Virus record (IMG/VR): IMGVR_UViG_3300037045_000191
Location: 1-27,578 of that record
DNA from: a virus
Taxonomy: Duplodnaviria; Caudoviricetes
DNA length: 27,578 bases
Strand: one strand, 5' to 3'
Positions 8,965-21,164 of the stretch are shown in pieces. The stretch's first letter is position 1; each line of letters starts with the position of its first letter. The notes below the pieces were generated by a model, which was not told where the DNA came from, did no database searches, and saw only the letters and a list, made by a program, of their open reading frames with translations. The position numbers were made by a program, and so were the translations under genes.

Positions 8965-10023
8965 TTAAACGTTTGCACTAACGATGGCTCCGCGCGCCTC
9001 TTCCTTGGTTGGAAGCACAATAAAATTGTGACGGAAAGCCAGCGTATTGCGCTGGTATTGTGGGTCTTTTTTCGCCTCACCAGAATACATTTTTACCCAG
9101 CCAGATGCCTTTGCAACTCTTTCGAGCGAGAAAGCAACAGAAGCCTTATGGTCGGTTGCTGCCGGAACAGCACCAAACGAAAGTTTTACTTTAGTGGCGG
9201 GATTGAAGTAAGGACAACCGCTGTACGCATACACCTCGAACCCGTAAAGGTTGGCAATTTTGCCGGTGGTGTAGTTGTAGTACTGTTCCTTAAAATTCTG
9301 GTCAACCAGCAAAAGGTCGTTCACGTGTTCGTCGGTCAAAACCAAACGCCTTCCAACGTCGGGAATTTCCTGGGCGTCAAACTTGCCTTTAAGGTCAACA
9401 ATGTCCTTTAAGGTTAGCCTTTTTCGTCCGGTACCATCATCGTCCCCGGTGGTGAGGAGTACGGGAGTTAACGCCTTGTTTGAGGCCGGCGCAATGGCAT
9501 GGATAGCCTTTTTCTTTTTCGTCCGGTCAATGGCTTTGGCGTGTTTGCTCTTAACAGTGCCTATTTTATCGTAGGTCAACGCGTAGAGCTCGTCATCAGT
9601 GACCGGAGTTACTTTAGTTTGCAGTTTGTCCAGAGTTATGGGGACGTCATCCTCACCCAGAGTTTGCAAATCTATTGGATATGTAGTATTATTAACCAGG
9701 ACATCCGGCAAAACACCCATGTAAGTGATGTGGATTACCTGCATTTCGTCGCCTACATTGGAGACATAACGCGAAAAATCCTCTATACCGTCCAAAAAGG
9801 TAGCCTCTTCGAGCTTCGACATTTCGGTCTTTACGGCACCTGTCCAAACCTCGCGGTACACGCCAGCCATGGTCAGCCCTGCACCCATTGGGATAAACTG
9901 ACATACCTGAATTATTCCGGCAACGGCATAACCGTTGAACCCGGTGGCCATTTCAATGCCGAATCCGGCAGCTACGCTTATAATAAGCGAAAAAAGAAAC
10001 GAAAGAATGAATTTACTTTTCAT
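8965..10023 (-). CDS. Major capsid protein with hydrophobic N-terminal leader (352 aa)
   Basis: Follows protease/scaffold; IPDVGRRLVL and GKIANLYGFEVY are HK97-fold-type motifs. Start revised to ATG 10023 (A-rich context, 19 nt after the protease stop). Confidence 0.85.
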   Translation of the reverse strand: MKSKFILSFLFSLIISVAAGFGIEMATGFNGYAVAGIIQVCQFIPMGAGLTMAGVYREVWTGAVKTEMSKLEEATFLDGIEDFSRYVSNVGDEMQVIHITYMGVLPDVLVNNTTYPIDLQTLGEDDVPITLDKLQTKVTPVTDDELYALTYDKIGTVKSKHAKAIDRTKKKKAIHAIAPASNKALTPVLLTTGDDDGTGRKRLTLKDIVDLKGKFDAQEIPDVGRRLVLTDEHVNDLLLVDQNFKEQYYNYTTGKIANLYGFEVYAYSGCPYFNPATKVKLSFGAVPAATDHKASVAFSLERVAKASGWVKMYSGEAKKDPQYQRNTLAFRHNFIVLPTKEEARGAIVSANV

Positions 10024-10042
10024 TGTGTGTGTGTTTTTGTGA

Positions 10043-11140
10043 TTACAATTCGGGCTCAACGCCATATTTTGCCTTGTACAAGGCTTTGAATTTTGCCGGG
10101 TCTTTTTTCGGCATAGCCTCCAATTCGGCACTGGCCTCGGTTTGGTATTTTTCCCAATCCCAGTCCTTACGGTCGTTGGTGTTGCCACCTTCGCCACCGT
10201 TGTTAATCTGGGATGTTACTGATTTGTATTCCCGCATGTCTGCGAAAATGGCATTCAGTTCGTCCAAGCCAATTTTGTTGCCACGTGCCACGTACTCGTC
10301 TCGCTTTTCTTTGGCGATTTTTCCAGCGGCAATAGCGGCATCAACAGAGGCTTCAATGCTTTTTTTCTGCGTATCGGCAAGTTTTGCCTCGGCAGACTCG
10401 CGTGCCGTTTTTTCAGCAGCAAGTTTAGCATCAATGGCAGCATATATCTGCTCGTCGGTGCTGGCTTCGGTAACGGTGGTTAAACCATACCGGGCAATAA
10501 GCTCTTTTTTGTTCATGTCCTGTATTTTTGTGATTTGTGCTGCGAAACGCTCATACACGCCTTTTGCGCCCAATGCCACGGCATCAGTCTTGTCAAGGGT
10601 TGTAATGTCTTTAACTTTTGGGGAAAATTTTGCATCTGCCAGACCGGCGGCAATGGCATCATCAGCATCGAACCAATTATCGCCTTTAAGCCATGCCTTT
10701 ACTTCATCCTCGGTTTTCTTAGTGCGCTCAACCAACTTTGCAACAAAGTTTTTCTCCATTTTGCGGAGCAAAGCGGCGTACTTTTCCAAGTCCTCGGAGG
10801 TTCCATCAGCACCACCTTGCGGGGCGTGAATCATAATAAAGGCATTCTCGGCGATGTGAATTCGATTACCGGCTAACATAATTATACTGCCCATACTGGC
10901 GGCAACACCGTCAATATAGACATCAATTTGACCTGCAAAACTGGCCAAAGCGTTGTAAATCATATTCCCGTCGAATACGTATCCGCCGTAAGTGTGCAAG
11001 TGAAAGTCGAGTTGTTTGTAACCGTCGTTGGTTATGTCGGCAATGGCCTGAGTTACGTTTCGGTAATCCAGGTACACGCCACCTACGTAACCGTAAATGG
11101 TCAAAACAGCTTTTCCTTTTTCCTTTTTAAGTAAAAACAT
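10043..11140 (-). CDS. ClpP-like head maturation protease fused to scaffold domain
   Basis: LTIYGYVG, HTYGG, IDGVAASMGS (Ser), IMIHAP (His), NWFDADDAIAAGLAD; helical Ala/Lys/Glu-rich C-terminus. Start revised to ATG 11140. Confidence 0.9.
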   Translation of the reverse strand: MFLLKKEKGKAVLTIYGYVGGVYLDYRNVTQAIADITNDGYKQLDFHLHTYGGYVFDGNMIYNALASFAGQIDVYIDGVAASMGSIIMLAGNRIHIAENAFIMIHAPQGGADGTSEDLEKYAALLRKMEKNFVAKLVERTKKTEDEVKAWLKGDNWFDADDAIAAGLADAKFSPKVKDITTLDKTDAVALGAKGVYERFAAQITKIQDMNKKELIARYGLTTVTEASTDEQIYAAIDAKLAAEKTARESAEAKLADTQKKSIEASVDAAIAAGKIAKEKRDEYVARGNKIGLDELNAIFADMREYKSVTSQINNGGEGGNTNDRKDWDWEKYQTEASAELEAMPKKDPAKFKALYKAKYGVEPEL

Positions 11141-11297
11141 GGTTTCGCGTTTTGTGCGTTTTGAAAGCACAATATTAGATTGTTTTGTTTCTAAAAACAA
11201 ACACAACTAACTGTATAACAGCGTTTTATATCGTACTGACATAAATATTATATTTTTTATTACGGAAACACGATTTTTGCCTTTTTACGGTGTAACA
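11141..11297. promoter_or_regulatory. Divergent late promoter region
   Basis: AT-rich gap between two divergent structural operons; imperfect -7 boxes TAATATTG (-, 11177..11170) and GATTTTTG (+, 11272-11279). Confidence 0.55.
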
Positions 11298-13321: not shown

Positions 13322-13759
13322 ATGGCATTTATTGTTGATAGCGATTACAGTGTTCAGCTGCGCACCGAAATAGGCAAGGTCATTGACCCAACCACGCAAC
13401 AAACCAAACTGAAACGAGCCGTTGATATGGCCATTTCGCAGGTAAAAAACTACCTTTCCGGCAGATACGACCTGGCAAAGATATTTGTTGATGCCCCCAG
13501 CGAAGGCGAAACCGACGAACGTGACAGTTTCGTGGTTATGATAGTCATTGACATGGCGTTGTACCACCTGTGGAGCAAAGAGGGCGCAAACAACATCCCA
13601 ACCACACGCGCCGACAGATACAACGATGCCCTTGAATGGCTGAAAGCCGTCCAAAAAGGGGCAGATACCAACCTGCCACTAATTACCGACGATAACGGCG
13701 GTGAGTTGGTTGATATGAGAATTTGGAGCAAACATTCACCCGAAAATAACCGTTTTTAA
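13322..13759 (+). CDS. Head-tail adaptor (Mu gp36/DUF1320-like)
   Basis: NYLSGRYDL, DMALYHL, RYNDALEWLKAV; ATG 13322. Confidence 0.88.
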   Translation: MAFIVDSDYSVQLRTEIGKVIDPTTQQTKLKRAVDMAISQVKNYLSGRYDLAKIFVDAPSEGETDERDSFVVMIVIDMALYHLWSKEGANNIPTTRADRYNDALEWLKAVQKGADTNLPLITDDNGGELVDMRIWSKHSPENNRF

Positions 13760-15000
13760 TGGATACCATAACAACCAAATCATACCTGTGGGGCATGATT
13801 CGCAACGAAACAAAAGCCCCTAAAATCAGCAAGACTGACAAACACGTCATAACTCAGTTGGTTACCGAGTTTCAAGACCGGAGCAGAAGCGACATTGTAA
13901 AATGGCGGGAGGCTTTGGAAGCTGCCGAGAATCCTGAAAACCCACGCTGGGTGCTGTTACAGGACTTGCTGGAAAATTTGATGACCGACGGTCACTTAAT
14001 GGCGGTCATAGACATTCGAAAGGCTGCTGTACTGAGTAATCGATTTTATGTCGAGGATGCCAACGGCACTGAAAACGACGAAGCAACAAAACTCCTTAAA
14101 ACCAAGTGGTTTTACAATCTTTTAGATGTTATGCTAGATAGTGTATATCTGAAATACTCGGTGGTAGAACTGGTTGACCCTCTAACCATGACATTCAAGG
14201 CGGTACCCCGCAGAAATGTTTGCCCGCAATTGGAGCGAATTTACCTTGAAGTGTTTGGAGATAAGTTTGTTTGGTACAAAGACCCCTATTTTGCCAACAA
14301 TGTTTTGGCGGTACAAAGCAACTCGAAGTTTGGCATCTTGAACGATATCGTTCCGCAATTAATCTGGAAGCGAAACGCCCAACAAACATGGGCTGATTTT
14401 TCTGAAAAGTTTGGAATACCATTAGTTACCGCCGAGACATTCACCACCGACAAAAAGAAGCTGGATTTGATTGAAACCATGCTCCGAAACTTGGGGCAGG
14501 CGGCACAGGCTGTGTTACCCGAGGGCACGAAAATAACTATACACGACGCATCAACGAAAGGCGACCCACACAACGTGTTTAGTGAGCAAATTAAGGTTAC
14601 CAACGGCGAAATATCCGAGAGAATTGTTGGCGGTACGATGATAACCAGCGACGGAAGTTCCCGAAGCCAAAGCGAGGTGCACGAGCGAACCCTCGACTAT
14701 AAATTAGCCGAGAACGACCGCAGAATGATTGAATTTGTGGTTAACGATGACCTTTTCCCCATTTTACGCGCCAATGGAATTAAATTGGCCGATACCGACC
14801 GCTTTGTCTTCGACCGCACCGAGGACTTAAGCCTTACACAACACTGGTCGATAGTGCAGGGCATTATGTCCGACTACGAAGTTGACCAGGATTGGCTTAG
14901 CCGTACCTTCAACATTCCCATAATTGGCAAAAAAGCACTAACAGGCAGCCCATTGTTGCCAAACACCGGCGGAAAAGCCTTAACCAAAAATTTTCGGTAG
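13759..15000 (+). CDS. Portal protein (Mu gp29/DUF935-like)
   Basis: DGHLMAVIDIRK, WADFSEKFGIP, GSSRSQSEVHE motifs. Confidence 0.92.
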   Translation: MDTITTKSYLWGMIRNETKAPKISKTDKHVITQLVTEFQDRSRSDIVKWREALEAAENPENPRWVLLQDLLENLMTDGHLMAVIDIRKAAVLSNRFYVEDANGTENDEATKLLKTKWFYNLLDVMLDSVYLKYSVVELVDPLTMTFKAVPRRNVCPQLERIYLEVFGDKFVWYKDPYFANNVLAVQSNSKFGILNDIVPQLIWKRNAQQTWADFSEKFGIPLVTAETFTTDKKKLDLIETMLRNLGQAAQAVLPEGTKITIHDASTKGDPHNVFSEQIKVTNGEISERIVGGTMITSDGSSRSQSEVHERTLDYKLAENDRRMIEFVVNDDLFPILRANGIKLADTDRFVFDRTEDLSLTQHWSIVQGIMSDYEVDQDWLSRTFNIPIIGKKALTGSPLLPNTGGKALTKNFR

Positions 15001-15029
15001 GGGTCAGTCCACAGGGCTGCGCTGACCCC
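14988..15029 (+). promoter_or_regulatory. Putative -1 ribosomal frameshift signal (portal to MuF)
   Basis: In-frame heptamer A AAT TTT (14988-14994), 5-nt spacer, 8-bp stem GGGGTCAG (15000-15007)/CTGACCCC (15022-15029); -1 frame is continuous with MuF. Confidence 0.72.
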
Positions 15030-16334
15030 GACATATTGCCCGAATTCTATGCCGATACCTGCCCGCATTGTGGCGACAAACACCCAACGGCAGTATCAAC
15101 ACTGCCCGATGGTTTGCCGTCCAAAATAACGCGCGAAATTGCCCGAATTGTCGCCGATGTTTACAACGGAAACGTTGGCAAAGAAAACATAGACTATCGA
15201 TTGTTAAAGTTGGTAGGAAATGCCGTTGAAAGTGCCATGATTGACGGCTTTGGAAAGTCATTTGCAACCGTTGACTGGACAACTCCCGATGGCGAAATGC
15301 TTATGCGCCTTACCCGCGATTGTTGGAACTTTTCAGCAGCCAAAAATTACACCCAACTGCGCGACATGACACTGGCGTTGGTTGACGAAAAGGGCAAAGC
15401 GCGAACATTCAGCGAGTTTAAGGACGCTTGCAAAGTAATTGACGAAAAGCACCTGAATTGGCTTAAAACGGAATACGACCAAGCAATTGGAGCGTCAACC
15501 ATGGCGGCACGCTGGGCAGACTACCAGAAAAATGCCGACATAATGCCCTGGTTAAAGTACAGCACCGTAGGAGACCAAAACGTAAGGGAGGAGCACGCTC
15601 TTTTAGACGGCATTATTAAGAAAATAACCGACGAATTTTGGGACATATATTTCCCCCCAAATGGTTGGAAATGCCGCTGCAGTGCCGACCAAATGTCAAC
15701 ATCCCTATCACGGGAAACCGAAAACGTGCCGTCGGTTACCATTCCGGACATGTTTAGGACGAATTTGGCAAAAACGGGACTTGCTTTCCCGCCAAAACAT
15801 CCTTATTACGATATAATTCCAAAAGAAATCCTCAGAGGTGTACCTTTTAGATTACCCGAAAAGGAGGCTTTTAAAGAACTGTATAGGAACGAGAATACGG
15901 GTGGTTATGTAAGGATGCACATCATGCATGGTTTGAGCGAGTACCAGGAGAATTACACCACCGCTAAGATACTTGCCGACAGAGGTGATAAAATAAAATT
16001 ATTACCAATACTGAAAACCGACGAGGAGCGAAAATTATTTTATGGAAATCAACCATTTATATCAGGGAAAAACCCTGACTGCTTTTTAAATGGGGCGTTG
16101 TACGAGATAAAAAGCATAGAAAACGCCACACGTAAGAAGTTGCAAAAGAAACTTATGGAAGGTCGAGAACAGGCGGCAAACGTAATTATGCATCTTACTA
16201 ATGGGGCAGATGATAATTTAGTGTACAGGGCGATTAATGGTATTTTTAATCAATCAAAACACGTTAATAACGTAATCATAATCAACAATCTTGATTATAA
16301 AATAATGAAAAACCCCAACTACGTGAGCAATTGA
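14994..16334 (+). CDS. MuF (Mu gp30/SPP1 gp7-like) head protein with C-terminal PD-(D/E)XK nuclease (CdiA-CT-like) domain
   Basis: WLKTEYDQA, YSTVGDQNVREEH, FWDIYFPPNGWKCRCS; tip has KNPDCFLNGALYEIKS. Only a TTG (15036) is available near the 5' end; first ATG is at residue 68 of the called ORF. Confidence 0.88.
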   Translation, partial: SVGVSPQGCADPDILPEFYADTCPHCGDKHPTAVSTLPDGLPSKITREIARIVADVYNGNVGKENIDYRLLKLVGNAVESAMIDGFGKSFATVDWTTPDGEMLMRLTRDCWNFSAAKNYTQLRDMTLALVDEKGKARTFSEFKDACKVIDEKHLNWLKTEYDQAIGASTMAARWADYQKNADIMPWLKYSTVGDQNVREEHALLDGIIKKITDEFWDIYFPPNGWKCRCSADQMSTSLSRETENVPSVTIPDMFRTNLAKTGLAFPPKHPYYDIIPKEILRGVPFRLPEKEAFKELYRNENTGGYVRMHIMHGLSEYQENYTTAKILADRGDKIKLLPILKTDEERKLFYGNQPFISGKNPDCFLNGALYEIKSIENATRKKLQKKLMEGREQAANVIMHLTNGADDNLVYRAINGIFNQSKHVNNVIIINNLDYKIMKNPNYVSN

Positions 16335-16372
16335 GGTTTTTGGCTTCCTAGGGACGTATCCCATGGAACACC
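16305..16372 (-). ncRNA. Putative small structured antisense RNA at the MuF 3' end
   Basis: Promoter directly upstream; hairpin GGTGTTCCATGGGA-TACG-TCCCTAGGAAGCC (16372..16342), then terminator-like hairpin with U-tract (16341..16308). Confidence 0.5.
16308..16341. terminator. Bidirectional terminator-like hairpin over MuF stop
   Basis: AAAAACCCCAACT...AATTGAGGTTTTT, with T5 on each strand. Confidence 0.6.
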
Positions 16373-16373
16373 A

Positions 16374-16404
16374 CAAAGATACAACATTAAAATACAAAAG
16401 TCAA
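16374..16404 (-). promoter_or_regulatory. Bacteroidota housekeeping-sigma promoter, antisense
   Basis: TTG (16404..16402)-N20-TATCTTTG (16381..16374) fits TTG-N19-21-TAnnTTTG. Confidence 0.65.
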
Positions 16405-16408
16405 CACT

Positions 16409-18487
16409 ATGGACGGAAAAAGTAAAATAGAATTGGTTTTGGAGTTAAAAAACCGCATGAAAACAGGCCTTACCAAAGCCAAAGAATCGGTTAACTCCAA
16501 CGTAACGGCCATGAAGGAACGTTTAAGCAACCTAAAAAACCACCACGTGGCAGCATTTAAGGCCATGCGCGACGAGGTTCCTATGTTGGGCAGGGCTTTT
16601 GCTCTTGTGGGAAATCCCTACACCATGATTATTGCAGGAGCAATTGCTTTGGGTGCAACACTCTATACGGCAGGTAAAAAAGCGTCTGAATTTCATGCGG
16701 CTTTTTTGCCCATTAAACAACTTAACCTGGATAAATCGTCCGCAACGTTGCGACAATACCAAAACCAGATTAAGGACGCCGCATATAATGTTGGGGCTGA
16801 CCTGAACAAAGCCACTAGTGCTTTTTACGACCTGCAATCAGGAACCGGTCTTTTTGGTCAGGATGCTGTGGACGTATTTGAGAAAGTTGGCAAGTACAGC
16901 CTCGTAACTGGTGCCGACATTAACGATTCCATGAACTCTACCGTGAAGGCTATGCGGGCATTTGGTTTGTCTGTAAAAGACATTGACAGCCTGCTCATTT
17001 CCAACGCCAAAACGGTACAAATGGGTATTACCACCTTCGACGAGCTGGCGCGGGTGCAAACTGAATATGCCGGGGCCGCTAAAGGAGCAGGGCAAAATGT
17101 TGACACGGCCAACAAACTCTTTGCGGCGTTTACTTCAATTGCCAAAGATGCCAACATTGCCGCCAACATGACCAAAACGGCATTCCAGGGATTAACCCAA
17201 AAACAAACCATTGACGGCTTGCAATCAATAGGCATAAGCATGTACGACGCAAACGGGAATATGCGCGACATGGCCACAATTCTGAAAGATGTAAGCCAAA
17301 AATTCAAGACCATGTCATCGGCACAAATTGACGGTTTGATAAACAAAATAGGCGGTCCTGAAGGTTTGCGTTCAATGTTTGTAAAACTCAAGACATCGGG
17401 CGACGACTTCTTTAACACACTTAACGGATTCGATAATTCTACATTTAATTTTGAACAGGCCATGGCAAACGCCATGAACGATTTTGCGACACTAAAATCG
17501 GTCTTTTGGAATCGACTGAACATAGTGCTTACTAGGCTCGGAGAAAAAATACTACCCGTTTTGATTTCAGGGTTGAATGCCGTTATCAAAATAATGGACT
17601 TCTTTGAAAAAGGGTTCACGAAGGGCAAACGCGAATTTATCACATACAACCAGGCTCTTGAAACCATAGGAGGAACATACGATAAATTTAAGACGCATCT
17701 TGCTAAAACGCAATCAGAGGCTATTTCGCTGTTCGAAGCGCTGAAAAGAACTAATCCAGGAACAGAAACCCGCCGTGCCTTAATTAACAAAATAAACCAG
17801 GAATACGGCAGCTACCTGCCCAACCTGTTGACAGAAAAAAGTACGCTTTTGGAAATTGCTGCTGCACAAGATGCCGTTACACGTTCTATCAGAAACCAAC
17901 TGGCCATGAAGGCCAAAGAGGAAAAGATAAACGCCATTGTACAAAGCCAAATGCAACGCGAACAGGATTGGCTTAAAAACTTCGTTACCGATTCTACTCC
18001 GTTGAGTTCTTGGATTGCAGGTCTCGAAGAGTTTACCTCGAAACAGGCCCTGCTATTAACTAAAGACGGTATCGTACAGCAAAGGCTTCTTGAGGCCGAA
18101 AACCTCTCTACCATGACTGGTTTTCCTCTAAAAACCATTGTGGAGACATTCCGACAGCTCAATAAATTGCGCGAGGACGACAAACGAGCCATAAAGTCAT
18201 ACAGCGACCTTTACTCCTCTTATTTTGACGAATCGGCGGCGGCAACAGGCGGAGGAGTTCCAACAGGTGGTACTGGTGGTGCTGGTGGCAGTGGTTCGAG
18301 CGATGTAACTTCCATTGCCGGAAGCGCCAAACAAATTAAGCACATTACCATCAACATTGATTCGTTCAACAAGGGTGGTATTAATACGCAAAACACAACG
18401 CTGCAAAACATGAACCCCCAGCAAATCGAAGAGTGGTTTAACAATATGCTTTTGCGTGTCATTCGTAACGTTGAAACAAGTTACTAG
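16409..18487 (+). CDS. Tail tape measure protein
   Basis: 692 aa, helical and Ala-rich; TP901-type core (LQSIGISMYDANGNMRDMATIL); C-terminal HITINID. Confidence 0.9.
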   Translation: MDGKSKIELVLELKNRMKTGLTKAKESVNSNVTAMKERLSNLKNHHVAAFKAMRDEVPMLGRAFALVGNPYTMIIAGAIALGATLYTAGKKASEFHAAFLPIKQLNLDKSSATLRQYQNQIKDAAYNVGADLNKATSAFYDLQSGTGLFGQDAVDVFEKVGKYSLVTGADINDSMNSTVKAMRAFGLSVKDIDSLLISNAKTVQMGITTFDELARVQTEYAGAAKGAGQNVDTANKLFAAFTSIAKDANIAANMTKTAFQGLTQKQTIDGLQSIGISMYDANGNMRDMATILKDVSQKFKTMSSAQIDGLINKIGGPEGLRSMFVKLKTSGDDFFNTLNGFDNSTFNFEQAMANAMNDFATLKSVFWNRLNIVLTRLGEKILPVLISGLNAVIKIMDFFEKGFTKGKREFITYNQALETIGGTYDKFKTHLAKTQSEAISLFEALKRTNPGTETRRALINKINQEYGSYLPNLLTEKSTLLEIAAAQDAVTRSIRNQLAMKAKEEKINAIVQSQMQREQDWLKNFVTDSTPLSSWIAGLEEFTSKQALLLTKDGIVQQRLLEAENLSTMTGFPLKTIVETFRQLNKLREDDKRAIKSYSDLYSSYFDESAAATGGGVPTGGTGGAGGSGSSDVTSIAGSAKQIKHITINIDSFNKGGINTQNTTLQNMNPQQIEEWFNNMLLRVIRNVETSY

Positions 18488-19965: not shown

Positions 19966-20658
19966 TTATTCTCCAATTACTTTTCCCGCTATTCGCTTGC
20001 GCAAATCGTGGTCAGTTATTTTATTAACTTCTTGCATTATTTCATAAACCTTCACGTCGTTTTGCCTGAAATCAATTTCCAACTGCCTTACCTTTCCCTG
20101 TTCGAAACGCAAACGGGCATATTTGGGACTTAAACAGGCTGTACGGCAAATTGTAAGGTGATGTGTTGGATAAATACGTTTTAGTTTGTTTACCATGCCA
20201 CTTTTAGGGCTATATCCGGCAGCCTTCAGTAGTTCCTTGCGCGGGTAGCCAACAACACCATTGTGAATAATTGGCCATACTCCGCCAATGGGCTCGGCAA
20301 TGACGGCTTGTTTCGTCATTAATTTCATTAAAAGTTCGTCAACAGACAATGCGAAATCTTCATTTATCCACTGTGCAAAACGCATAACTATTCTGTAGTC
20401 GTGTGCCCATGTTCCAGGTTGTTTTCCACCATTTACAACTGACACTAAATCAGTCAGTACGCATTTCTGCTTAGTGGCCAATTTATCAACATAACGCTTT
20501 GATTCGTCAGTCCTTAGCCAATCGGACGGCTTTTTGCCGAATTTCTTCGCCATTTGTGACAAGTTCACGGAAATATTTCCGCTTTTCATTTCAACGGCAA
20601 ATTTTGCGTGGTCTATCTCGACCATTTGCATTTCATTGTTTGTGTTTTGTGTTTTCAT
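19966..20658 (-). CDS. KilA-N domain protein (antirepressor-like)
   Basis: VNLSQMAKKFGKKPSDWLR...GG...GTWAH...RFAQWINEDF. Confidence 0.88.
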   Translation of the reverse strand: MKTQNTNNEMQMVEIDHAKFAVEMKSGNISVNLSQMAKKFGKKPSDWLRTDESKRYVDKLATKQKCVLTDLVSVVNGGKQPGTWAHDYRIVMRFAQWINEDFALSVDELLMKLMTKQAVIAEPIGGVWPIIHNGVVGYPRKELLKAAGYSPKSGMVNKLKRIYPTHHLTICRTACLSPKYARLRFEQGKVRQLEIDFRQNDVKVYEIMQEVNKITDHDLRKRIAGKVIGE

Positions 20659-20678
20659 ACTGTTTGCTTTTTAAGAAA

Positions 20679-21164
20679 TTAGGATTCGTGACCTGTTATT
20701 AGCTCAGCAAGTTCAATACGCAAAGCGTCATCTTTTACCTGACACAGTTTGCTCATAATGGCAATCATTCGCTCAGGCGTTAAACGGTTATGCTTTCTTT
20801 TTGGAGTTTCCGGCAATTCTGGCAACTTCTTTTCAATGAAATTAACCACAAGCCGCTCTACCCAATCTCTGAACAATTTAGCTCTTTCACTTTTAACATA
20901 AAAACCCAATCGGATAACTCCCTGCTTTGTCCACATGGTTGTTTTTCGACGAACACCCATACCGTCGAAAATTTCAACGGCATCAATAAAGTGCTTTCCT
21001 TCAATCAATTCATCTTTATTCAAAGATTTATGACTTCTTAGTGTGTTAGCATTAATATCATAACAATTCGCCACATCTTTAGTAGGTATTAAAAATTCGT
21101 GTTTGGCATCGGGAAATATAGTTACCGACAAGCCTTCCGATACTTGCATCATCATTGTTTTCAT
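20679..21164 (-). CDS. ORF6N/Bro-N-like antirepressor-type DNA-binding protein
   Basis: TKDVANCYD...ELIEGKHFI...WTKQGVIRLGFYVKSERAKLFRDW. Confidence 0.75.
   Translation of the reverse strand: MKTMMMQVSEGLSVTIFPDAKHEFLIPTKDVANCYDINANTLRSHKSLNKDELIEGKHFIDAVEIFDGMGVRRKTTMWTKQGVIRLGFYVKSERAKLFRDWVERLVVNFIEKKLPELPETPKRKHNRLTPERMIAIMSKLCQVKDDALRIELAELITGHES

Follow-up and report, generated by a model that had tools for sequence, protein, structure and literature searches.

A convergent small-RNA unit beside MuF nuclease tips and its candidate role as a tRNA acceptor-end decoy

The MuF locus and its antisense unit

The window, by which we mean the whole stretch of DNA analysed (27,578 nt, 27.6 kb), has the gene content of a Mu-like phage (Mu gp36, portal, MuF, tape measure), and the named homologs of its MuF protein are from Bacteroidota. 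The features that matter here are the following:

13759..15000, plus strand: portal protein gene, Mu-like (Pfam PF06074, E 5e-65)
14988..15029, plus strand: predicted site of -1 frameshifting, made up of the heptamer A AAT TTT (14988-14994) plus a GC-rich hairpin (15000-15029)
15036..16334, plus strand: MuF head protein with a C-terminal CdiA_C (PD-(D/E)XK) tip (PF04233 E 2e-14, PF18451 E 2e-8)
16307..16341, minus strand: intrinsic terminator with U run (16312-16308), 15 pairs (16341-16308), z -5.7
16341..16369, minus strand: predicted decoy domain, with +1 at G16369, a hairpin (16368-16345) and unpaired G-C-C-A (16344-16341)
16374..16381, minus strand: -7 box TATCTTTG, of the type used by the primary sigma factor of Bacteroidota (consensus as in the available text of PMC7366714 and PMC9723704)
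16402..16404, minus strand: -33 element TTG, recognized by sequence, with a 20-nt spacer to the -7 box
16409..18487, plus strand: tape measure protein gene, the next gene on the same strand (PF10145 E 1e-22)

Elsewhere on the minus strand of the window, KilA-N and Bro-N genes are adjacent (19966-21164), and a Clp protease ORF (10043-11206) overlaps the next ORF (8965-10197) by about 150 nt as called.

The MuF protein combines a MuF domain with a C-terminal toxin domain and is encoded in the head module after the portal gene, the arrangement that defines MuF polymorphic toxins. The toxins described in the available text of PMC5576092 and PMC11699363 likewise join MuF to a C-terminal toxin that varies, and their genes come after the portal gene in the head module. 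As a single-sequence query the tip gave zero matches, and an alignment of MuF homologs was required. The candidate catalytic residues E302, D348, E357 and K359 are all present in the window's tip; among 73 tip homologs, D348 is found in 73/73, E302 in 70/73 and K359 in 49/73, and position 357 is always acidic (E/D, 73/73). The predicted structure of the tip (pLDDT 88) had a sole Foldseek match with E<0.001, namely CdiA-CT 1026b (PDB 4G6V; E 2e-6, 17% identity), with which it shares the PD-(D/E)XK acidic and lysine residues. According to the available text of PMC9086364, this toxin cleaves tRNA-Ala at the acceptor stem, the part that the RNA described below resembles. On the basis of the model, the window's MuF tip, a 150-aa domain, is predicted to be a putative acceptor-stem tRNase. 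The CdiA_C, LPD3 and PBECR2 domains, three tip types that recur below, had no match among 14 control genomes, B. thetaiotaomicron included.

An immunity protein gene follows 89.4% of 191 MuF toxin genes (Jamet 2017, PMC5576092, available text). Whereas known MuF toxins are accompanied by a small immunity protein ORF, none lies between MuF and the tape measure gene in the window, where the slot is a non-coding unit: the gap is 74 nt (16335-16408) with no ORF of at least 50 aa inside, and the only ORF touching it is a 59-aa minus-strand frame ending at 16387, upstream of the box. The preliminary description had reported a consensus minus-strand promoter in this gap, and TTG-N20-TATCTTTG is indeed there (TTG 16404-16402, box 16381-16374). 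It had also proposed a unit of about 65 nt without an ORF, in agreement with a predicted minus-strand RNA of ~63 nt (16369 to ~16307), and a terminator over the 3' end of the toxin gene, which we find at 16341-16308, overlying the last 8 sense codons and the stop. Since the Bacteroidota promoter box spans -12 to -5 (PMC9723704, available text), +1 is G16369. The hairpin that had been placed at the expected start is present next to this G, but its first three bases as then drawn, GGU, precede the start. In the six closest relatives these three bases vary and the start G is invariant; a longer hairpin with a 5' GGU was thus ruled out, as GGU is both upstream of +1 and unconserved. The window hairpin reads G-UUCC-AU-GGGA-UACG-UCCC-UA-GGAA, then free G-C-C-A, with a 2x2 internal loop and a UACG loop.

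For the predicted 63-nt RNA the folding energy is -26.5 kcal/mol (z -4.8, matched by 0/200 shuffles), compared with z -1.5 for its plus-strand counterpart. Hairpin 1 is weak on its own (z -1.9) and the promoter box alone occurs at chance level in the window (27 found vs 29 expected), so that the case for the unit rests on conservation. The window and 40 loci gave 0 matches to Rfam 15 at the gathering threshold, and ARAGORN found 0 tRNA genes in the window. The RNA has no match of at least 11 nt to the rest of the window, for which reason a trans target or guide role within the window was rejected. The UCCC linker that many units share was also considered as an anti-Shine-Dalgarno element or a C-rich seed, an idea set aside because the window's clade has GCC and because Bacteroidetes mRNAs are described as lacking SD sequences (PMC9723704, available text).

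The preliminary description had further tied the toxin to a portal frameshift. In the window, the -1 frame from the portal is open into MuF, and a portal-MuF-nuclease fusion would be about 858 aa long. Among the 190 representative loci introduced below, 139 have a separate portal ORF, 17 others carry an in-frame portal-MuF fusion and 34 are unscorable; the -1 signal turned out to be conserved, a heptamer with a -1 overlap being present in 121/139 (a count that has no chance control). The heptamers across Bacteroidota Mu-like phages are mostly TTTTTTC, AAATTTT and AAAAAAA. A Porphyromonas phage encodes a single 852-aa portal-MuF-PBECR2 protein in frame. We infer that frameshifting takes place at the portal-MuF junction and that the nuclease is loaded into the virion.

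Co-inheritance of the unit with nuclease tips

We collected 240 MuF loci (the best 80 each from genomes, metagenomes and viral contigs) plus two more. Together with the window this made 243 sequences, 235 with the MuF motif and 226 with a closed ORF, from which 190 representatives were drawn at 90% identity, 186 of them with sufficient downstream DNA. Tip classes were assigned with a purpose-built profile and Pfam, and the box was scored as a minus-strand TAnnTTTG located 25-150 nt past the toxin stop.

The preliminary description had named co-inheritance of the RNA with the tip as a check, and co-inheritance is what we observed. The box follows 77/80 CdiA_C tips, vs 3/42 tip-less MuFs and 1/14 non-RNase tips (deamidase, ADP-ribosyltransferase, peptidase-like); it also follows 12/12 LPD3, 4/6 PBECR2 and 18/32 unclassified tips. 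The plus-strand control gave 5/80 for CdiA_C. In 38/76 homologous units a TTG precedes the box by 19-20 nt, which is the peak of the spacer distribution, and the start context is conserved as well (pyrimidine at -1 in 66/77, purine at +1 in 68/77). A rule-based terminator is found in 72/77 CdiA_C units, whose median length is 63 nt. On a FastTree phylogeny of 154 MuF cores, 11 independent pairs could be drawn, of which 10.3 on average agreed and 0.0 were opposite (p about 0.002). When RNase tips are compared with non-RNase tips alone, only 5 independent pairs are left and p is 0.06.

A further CdiA_C set (29 fetched, 22 kept after dropping six duplicates or overlaps and one sequence without a profile match) had the box in 21/22 loci. 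These include 7/8 genes without a MuF motif, so the unit follows the nuclease and not the downstream gene. The unit is also present in a cultured phage, Elizabethkingia phage TCUEAP3 (L352:2730-2802, minus strand). Taken as a promoter-hairpin-terminator unit, it is real and widespread.

The TCUEAP3 hairpin starts with ACG and ends with CGU-G, like the tRNA-Trp acceptor end of genome G001, but then continues with CUU. Standalone CdiA_C genes of 110-179 aa face a hairpin-terminator at L312, L314, L315, L318, L321 and L326 (the last with two tandem copies), and the box lies beside all of them but L312; these pairs look like two-part modules outside MuF.

What fills the slot depends on the tip. 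A convergent ORF of at least 50 aa follows 12/14 non-RNase tips, 9 of these ORFs with a box of their own, vs convergent frames of that size after 9/80 CdiA_C tips, boxed in 0/80. The same convergent-ORF layout accompanies the deamidase tip of Bacteroides phage p00. As in the known MuF toxins, tips exchange between close phages, and slot content changes with them: L213 (deamidase, ORF) and L214 (LPD3, RNA) share 83% MuF-core identity, tip and slot content also change together between L238 and L221 (82%), and they differ together between L227 (LPD3) and L240 (CdiA_C-like) at 94%. In the available text of PMC11699363, those small neighbours of Bacteroidales MuF toxin genes that were tested are immunity factors, and we infer that the convergent ORFs after non-RNase tips are immunity proteins. 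The position of the unit had been called that of an immunity gene, which fits a slot that holds a protein ORF for 12/14 non-RNase tips.

RNA shape in CdiA_C, LPD3 and PBECR2 units

The shape of the CdiA_C units was examined in a MAFFT alignment of 15 hand-picked units of similar length. In hairpin 1, 83% of cells are paired and double changes occur at 9/9 pairs, a level that 0/500 shuffles reach and that far exceeds the slid controls, the relatedness of the sequences inflating this result. A plain hairpin suffices for the covariation, the folding having covered pseudoknot-free structures. Tetraloops (n=39) include 17 UNCG and 12 GNRA, with 0 reverse-complement forms, and two outer helices are found in 53/72 units.

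The helix is followed by any base and then C, C (36/58 and 37/58 at the two positions), and CC lies at most 4 nt from the helix in 35/58 units vs 11 at random. The complete acceptor pattern, i.e. a stem of 3 bp that involves the RNA 5' end, followed by N-C-C, was found in 42/77 units vs 18.6 after shuffling (max 30), with pairing from +1 itself in 28 of them. Positions 70-73 are identical to a host-type tRNA in 14 vs 1.5 (max 5), the matches being to Thr, Cys, Gly, Leu, Asp and Asn ends; the reference tRNAs come from one related genome (that holding L004), which may not represent the window's host, and the Gly-TCC tRNA was left out. The held-out CdiA_C loci behaved similarly: 13/21 have the pattern vs 5.0 (max 11), and 5 have an exact 70-73 match vs 0.5 (max 3). 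Note that, the homologs being related, shuffle counts overstate independence. End signatures cluster by clade on the tip tree, as judged by eye. The pattern is absent from 35/77 CdiA_C units, and at the position after CC, C (17 of 42) outnumbers A (12 of 42). CdiA_C units have no anticodon-loop signal (9/77 vs 10.8 shuffled).

The window's clade (7 rows, support 93/97) has retained the outer stem and G-C and replaced the inner stem and loop; five rows share GUUCC...GGAAGC. In one locus, L004, positions 70-73 are identical to those of tRNA-Asn. The window has GAAG there, which differs from the GGAG of tRNA-Asn by one base and is an exact match to no host-type tRNA, and in its near relative L300 the second C is absent. 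In the window, N-C-C is internal with the terminator next to it, and therefore is not a free 3' end unless the RNA is processed; its A can pair with the U tail. Judged by sequence, the predicted decoy domain of the window resembles a U1-A72/G73 acceptor end, closest to that of tRNA-Asn of a related bacterium.

LPD3 units have another shape, namely one long hairpin (12/12). A stem-closed 7-nt loop with at least 6/7 identity to an anticodon loop is present in 8/12 vs 1.9 after shuffling (max 5) and 4/12 on the opposite strand; the 8/12 include the near twins L169/L170 and L105, which was scored on a non-apical loop. The acceptor signal is absent (3/12 vs 2.5). These features suggest that LPD3 may be an anticodon nuclease. 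LPD3 matched no PDB sequence, LPD3 and PBECR2 tips gave no profile match to each other, and Foldseek returned no significant match, with only weak rows for a CDI toxin (E 0.018) and RelE-family toxins, so that LPD3 counts as a candidate nuclease. Among 23 held-out LPD3/PBECR2 loci, the strict box lies within 150 nt in 4 and the anticodon-loop signal was not replicated (1/4 vs 0.97).

Other structures were seen beside these tips. Long minus-strand hairpins with His/Tyr-, Cys-, Arg- or Ser-like anticodon loops lie past the LPD3 stop at L214, L227, L169, L176 and L021, the LPD3 loops often being one base off the real loop. All four boxed PBECR2 units (L055, L137, L142, L206) have a CUGAAC loop, similar to the tRNA-Phe anticodon loop. 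Several held-out LPD3/PBECR2 loci have longer branched antisense structures with a terminator, some with sigma-70-like promoters. Such branched structures, about 100-130 nt long and terminator-ended, were found at the PBECR2 loci L334, L336, L337, L338, L340, L341 and L342, several of which share a GAAGC...hairpin...GTTGGTG/GCAGTG motif, a putative second RNA type. At L345, L346, L348 and L349, short PBECR2-like genes are followed by a same-strand small ORF and no antisense unit. Finally, in a GC-rich phage with a MuF-PBECR2 protein (L002:4155-4260, minus strand), a sigma-70-like promoter, hairpins and a terminator face the tip, hinting that the antisense layout extends beyond Bacteroidota-type promoters.

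A putative acceptor-end decoy and its alternatives

We favor the view that the RNA is a constitutive tRNA acceptor-end decoy that would bind and block the tip, and thereby act as its immunity factor, at a probability of roughly 0.63. The housekeeping sigma factor would drive its synthesis constitutively in lysogens, and also as soon as phage DNA has entered a cell. The tip would cut the acceptor ends of host tRNA, here probably of the U1-A72/G73 class (Asn-like), and the RNA would sit in the active site, as a mimic that is either cut poorly or sacrificed. The nuclease would be produced in part as a portal fusion by -1 frameshifting and carried in the head, and the decoy would shield the producing cell until packaging; in the lysogen, it would guard against nuclease of matching specificity that leaks or comes in from outside. 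Protection would therefore be limited to cells in which a phage genome with the matching decoy is present and transcribed.

The preliminary description had offered two mechanisms, mimicry of the substrate and type I-like silencing. The former is the one retained, and can now be specified as mimicry of a tRNA acceptor end (42/77 vs 18.6). The latter, in which a convergent RNA or its transcription would silence the toxin part of the late mRNA (through pairing and RNase III, or polymerase collision) and keep leaky toxin off in the lysogen, has the layout on its side: the unit is convergent and has a promoter and a terminator to itself, any late mRNA crossing the gap would be complementary to the RNA over its full length, and the terminator of the window, like those of its clade, reaches into the last codons. 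However, a coding overlap of at least 10 nt occurs in only 19/72 units, the median terminator stem ending 2 nt past the stop, and a cis-antisense RNA needs no conserved shape, while both fold and end signature track the tip family; these two points weaken the silencing version. Moreover, non-RNase toxins, which could be silenced equally well, have protein ORFs, and silencing could presumably not stop a nuclease delivered as protein. We therefore consider type I-like silencing unlikely. The strict coupling to nuclease tips and the tip-specific shape would suit any RNA-protein partnership, including one in which the nuclease needs or senses the RNA as an activator, scaffold, timer or guide, e.g. 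if RNA decay or cleavage activated the nuclease when host transcription stops, and the standalone CdiA_C genes with a unit do resemble two-part modules. Against such an activating or sensing role, which we hold to be quite improbable, the slot carries a small protein gene for other toxins, the small genes beside MuF toxins are immunity factors where tested (PMC11699363, available text), and the RNA has no variable guide segment and no match of at least 11 nt elsewhere in the window.

It could also be argued that there is no functional small RNA, the hairpins serving the plus-strand late mRNA as a terminator or processing site and the box being incidental. Across the window the box is no more frequent than chance would give, and the window's terminator could be bidirectional (U5 on the plus strand), but a plus-strand U tail exists in only 12/72 units, folding is much stronger on the minus strand (z -4.8) than on the plus strand (z -1.5), the tetraloop classes appear on the minus strand only, and the box, the -33 spacing and the pyrimidine/purine start are conserved, all of which makes this explanation very unlikely. 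The tRNA-like ends would also fit an anti-defence decoy directed at host tRNA-cutting immune enzymes and merely sharing the cassette with the tip; a phage tRNA reportedly neutralises the PARIS defence system, which we counted in favor of this idea. Since, however, the shape depends on which tip adjoins, and loss of the tip or the presence of a non-RNase tip goes with loss of the unit, we give an anti-defence role hardly any credence.

The acceptor-end decoy can be set against several known systems. The type I pairs txpA/RatA and bsrG/SR4 have a convergent 3' overlap and a small RNA with its own promoter and terminator, and toxins of this kind are mostly small membrane peptides; here, by contrast, we have a nuclease domain as the toxin, a coding overlap that tends to be minimal, and an RNA whose shape goes with the toxin family. 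The colicin D immunity protein, in work attributed to Graille in 2004, reportedly confers immunity to a tRNase through tRNA mimicry; there a protein acts as the mimic, whereas here an RNA would. The CdiA-CT/CdiI 1026b pair, the best fold match, differs in its delivery by two-partner secretion and in its inhibitor, which is a protein that occludes the active site (PMC9086364, available text).

Type III toxin-antitoxin systems share the principle: in ToxIN/CptIN/TenpIN (PMC13682666) and AbiF/RCd22 (bioRxiv 2025.04.15.648962), as far as the available text goes, a small RNA inhibits an RNase by binding it, as proposed here. In the available text of PMC13682666, their shared promoter is followed by tandem repeats, a terminator and then the toxin; the RNAs have pseudoknots, and the repeats are processed by the toxin. 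Here, the antitoxin is not upstream on the same strand under a shared promoter; the unit lies downstream, on the opposite strand, and is convergent with its own promoter. One hairpin with a tRNA-like end plus a terminator, within 63 nt, stands in place of tandem repeats, and the toxin is not of the ToxN/CptN/TenpN or AbiF families but a CdiA_C, PD-(D/E)XK domain fused to a virion protein. On sequence grounds, the RNA would thus work like a type III antitoxin but lacks the layout, repeat and toxin features of that family.

We found no description of the unit in the literature on MuF toxins, type III systems and tRNA mimics (a search that covered the main texts of mostly open-access papers). The word 'antisense' is absent from the main text of PMC5576092 and PMC11699363 (Bxa/Apk2). 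The word 'noncoding' does not occur in the available text of PMC5512222, which covers PBECR and LPD domains and suggests that they avoid tRNA; that of a 2026 BECR preprint contains neither 'antisense' nor 'RNA antitoxin', and that of a 2026 tRNA-mimic preprint names three other families. The unit thus is apparently undescribed so far.

In the literature examined, as far as its available text goes, polymorphic-toxin immunity has been described as protein-based. An RNA decoy would account for phage nuclease tips without an immunity ORF, and would mean a new RNA family and a new RNA antitoxin architecture. It yields a target prediction for each tip, with Asn-, Cys-, Thr- and Gly-like acceptor ends. 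Beyond this, the units may belong to a general modular class of RNA immunity in which each tRNA-cutting tip is paired with a matching mini-tRNA part (acceptor ends for CdiA_C, anticodon arms for LPD3), tip and decoy are swapped as one cassette, and protein immunity is confined to non-RNase toxins, a tentative generalization to which we give slightly less than even odds. If it is true, the decoy sequence would reveal the tRNA target of each uncharacterised nuclease.
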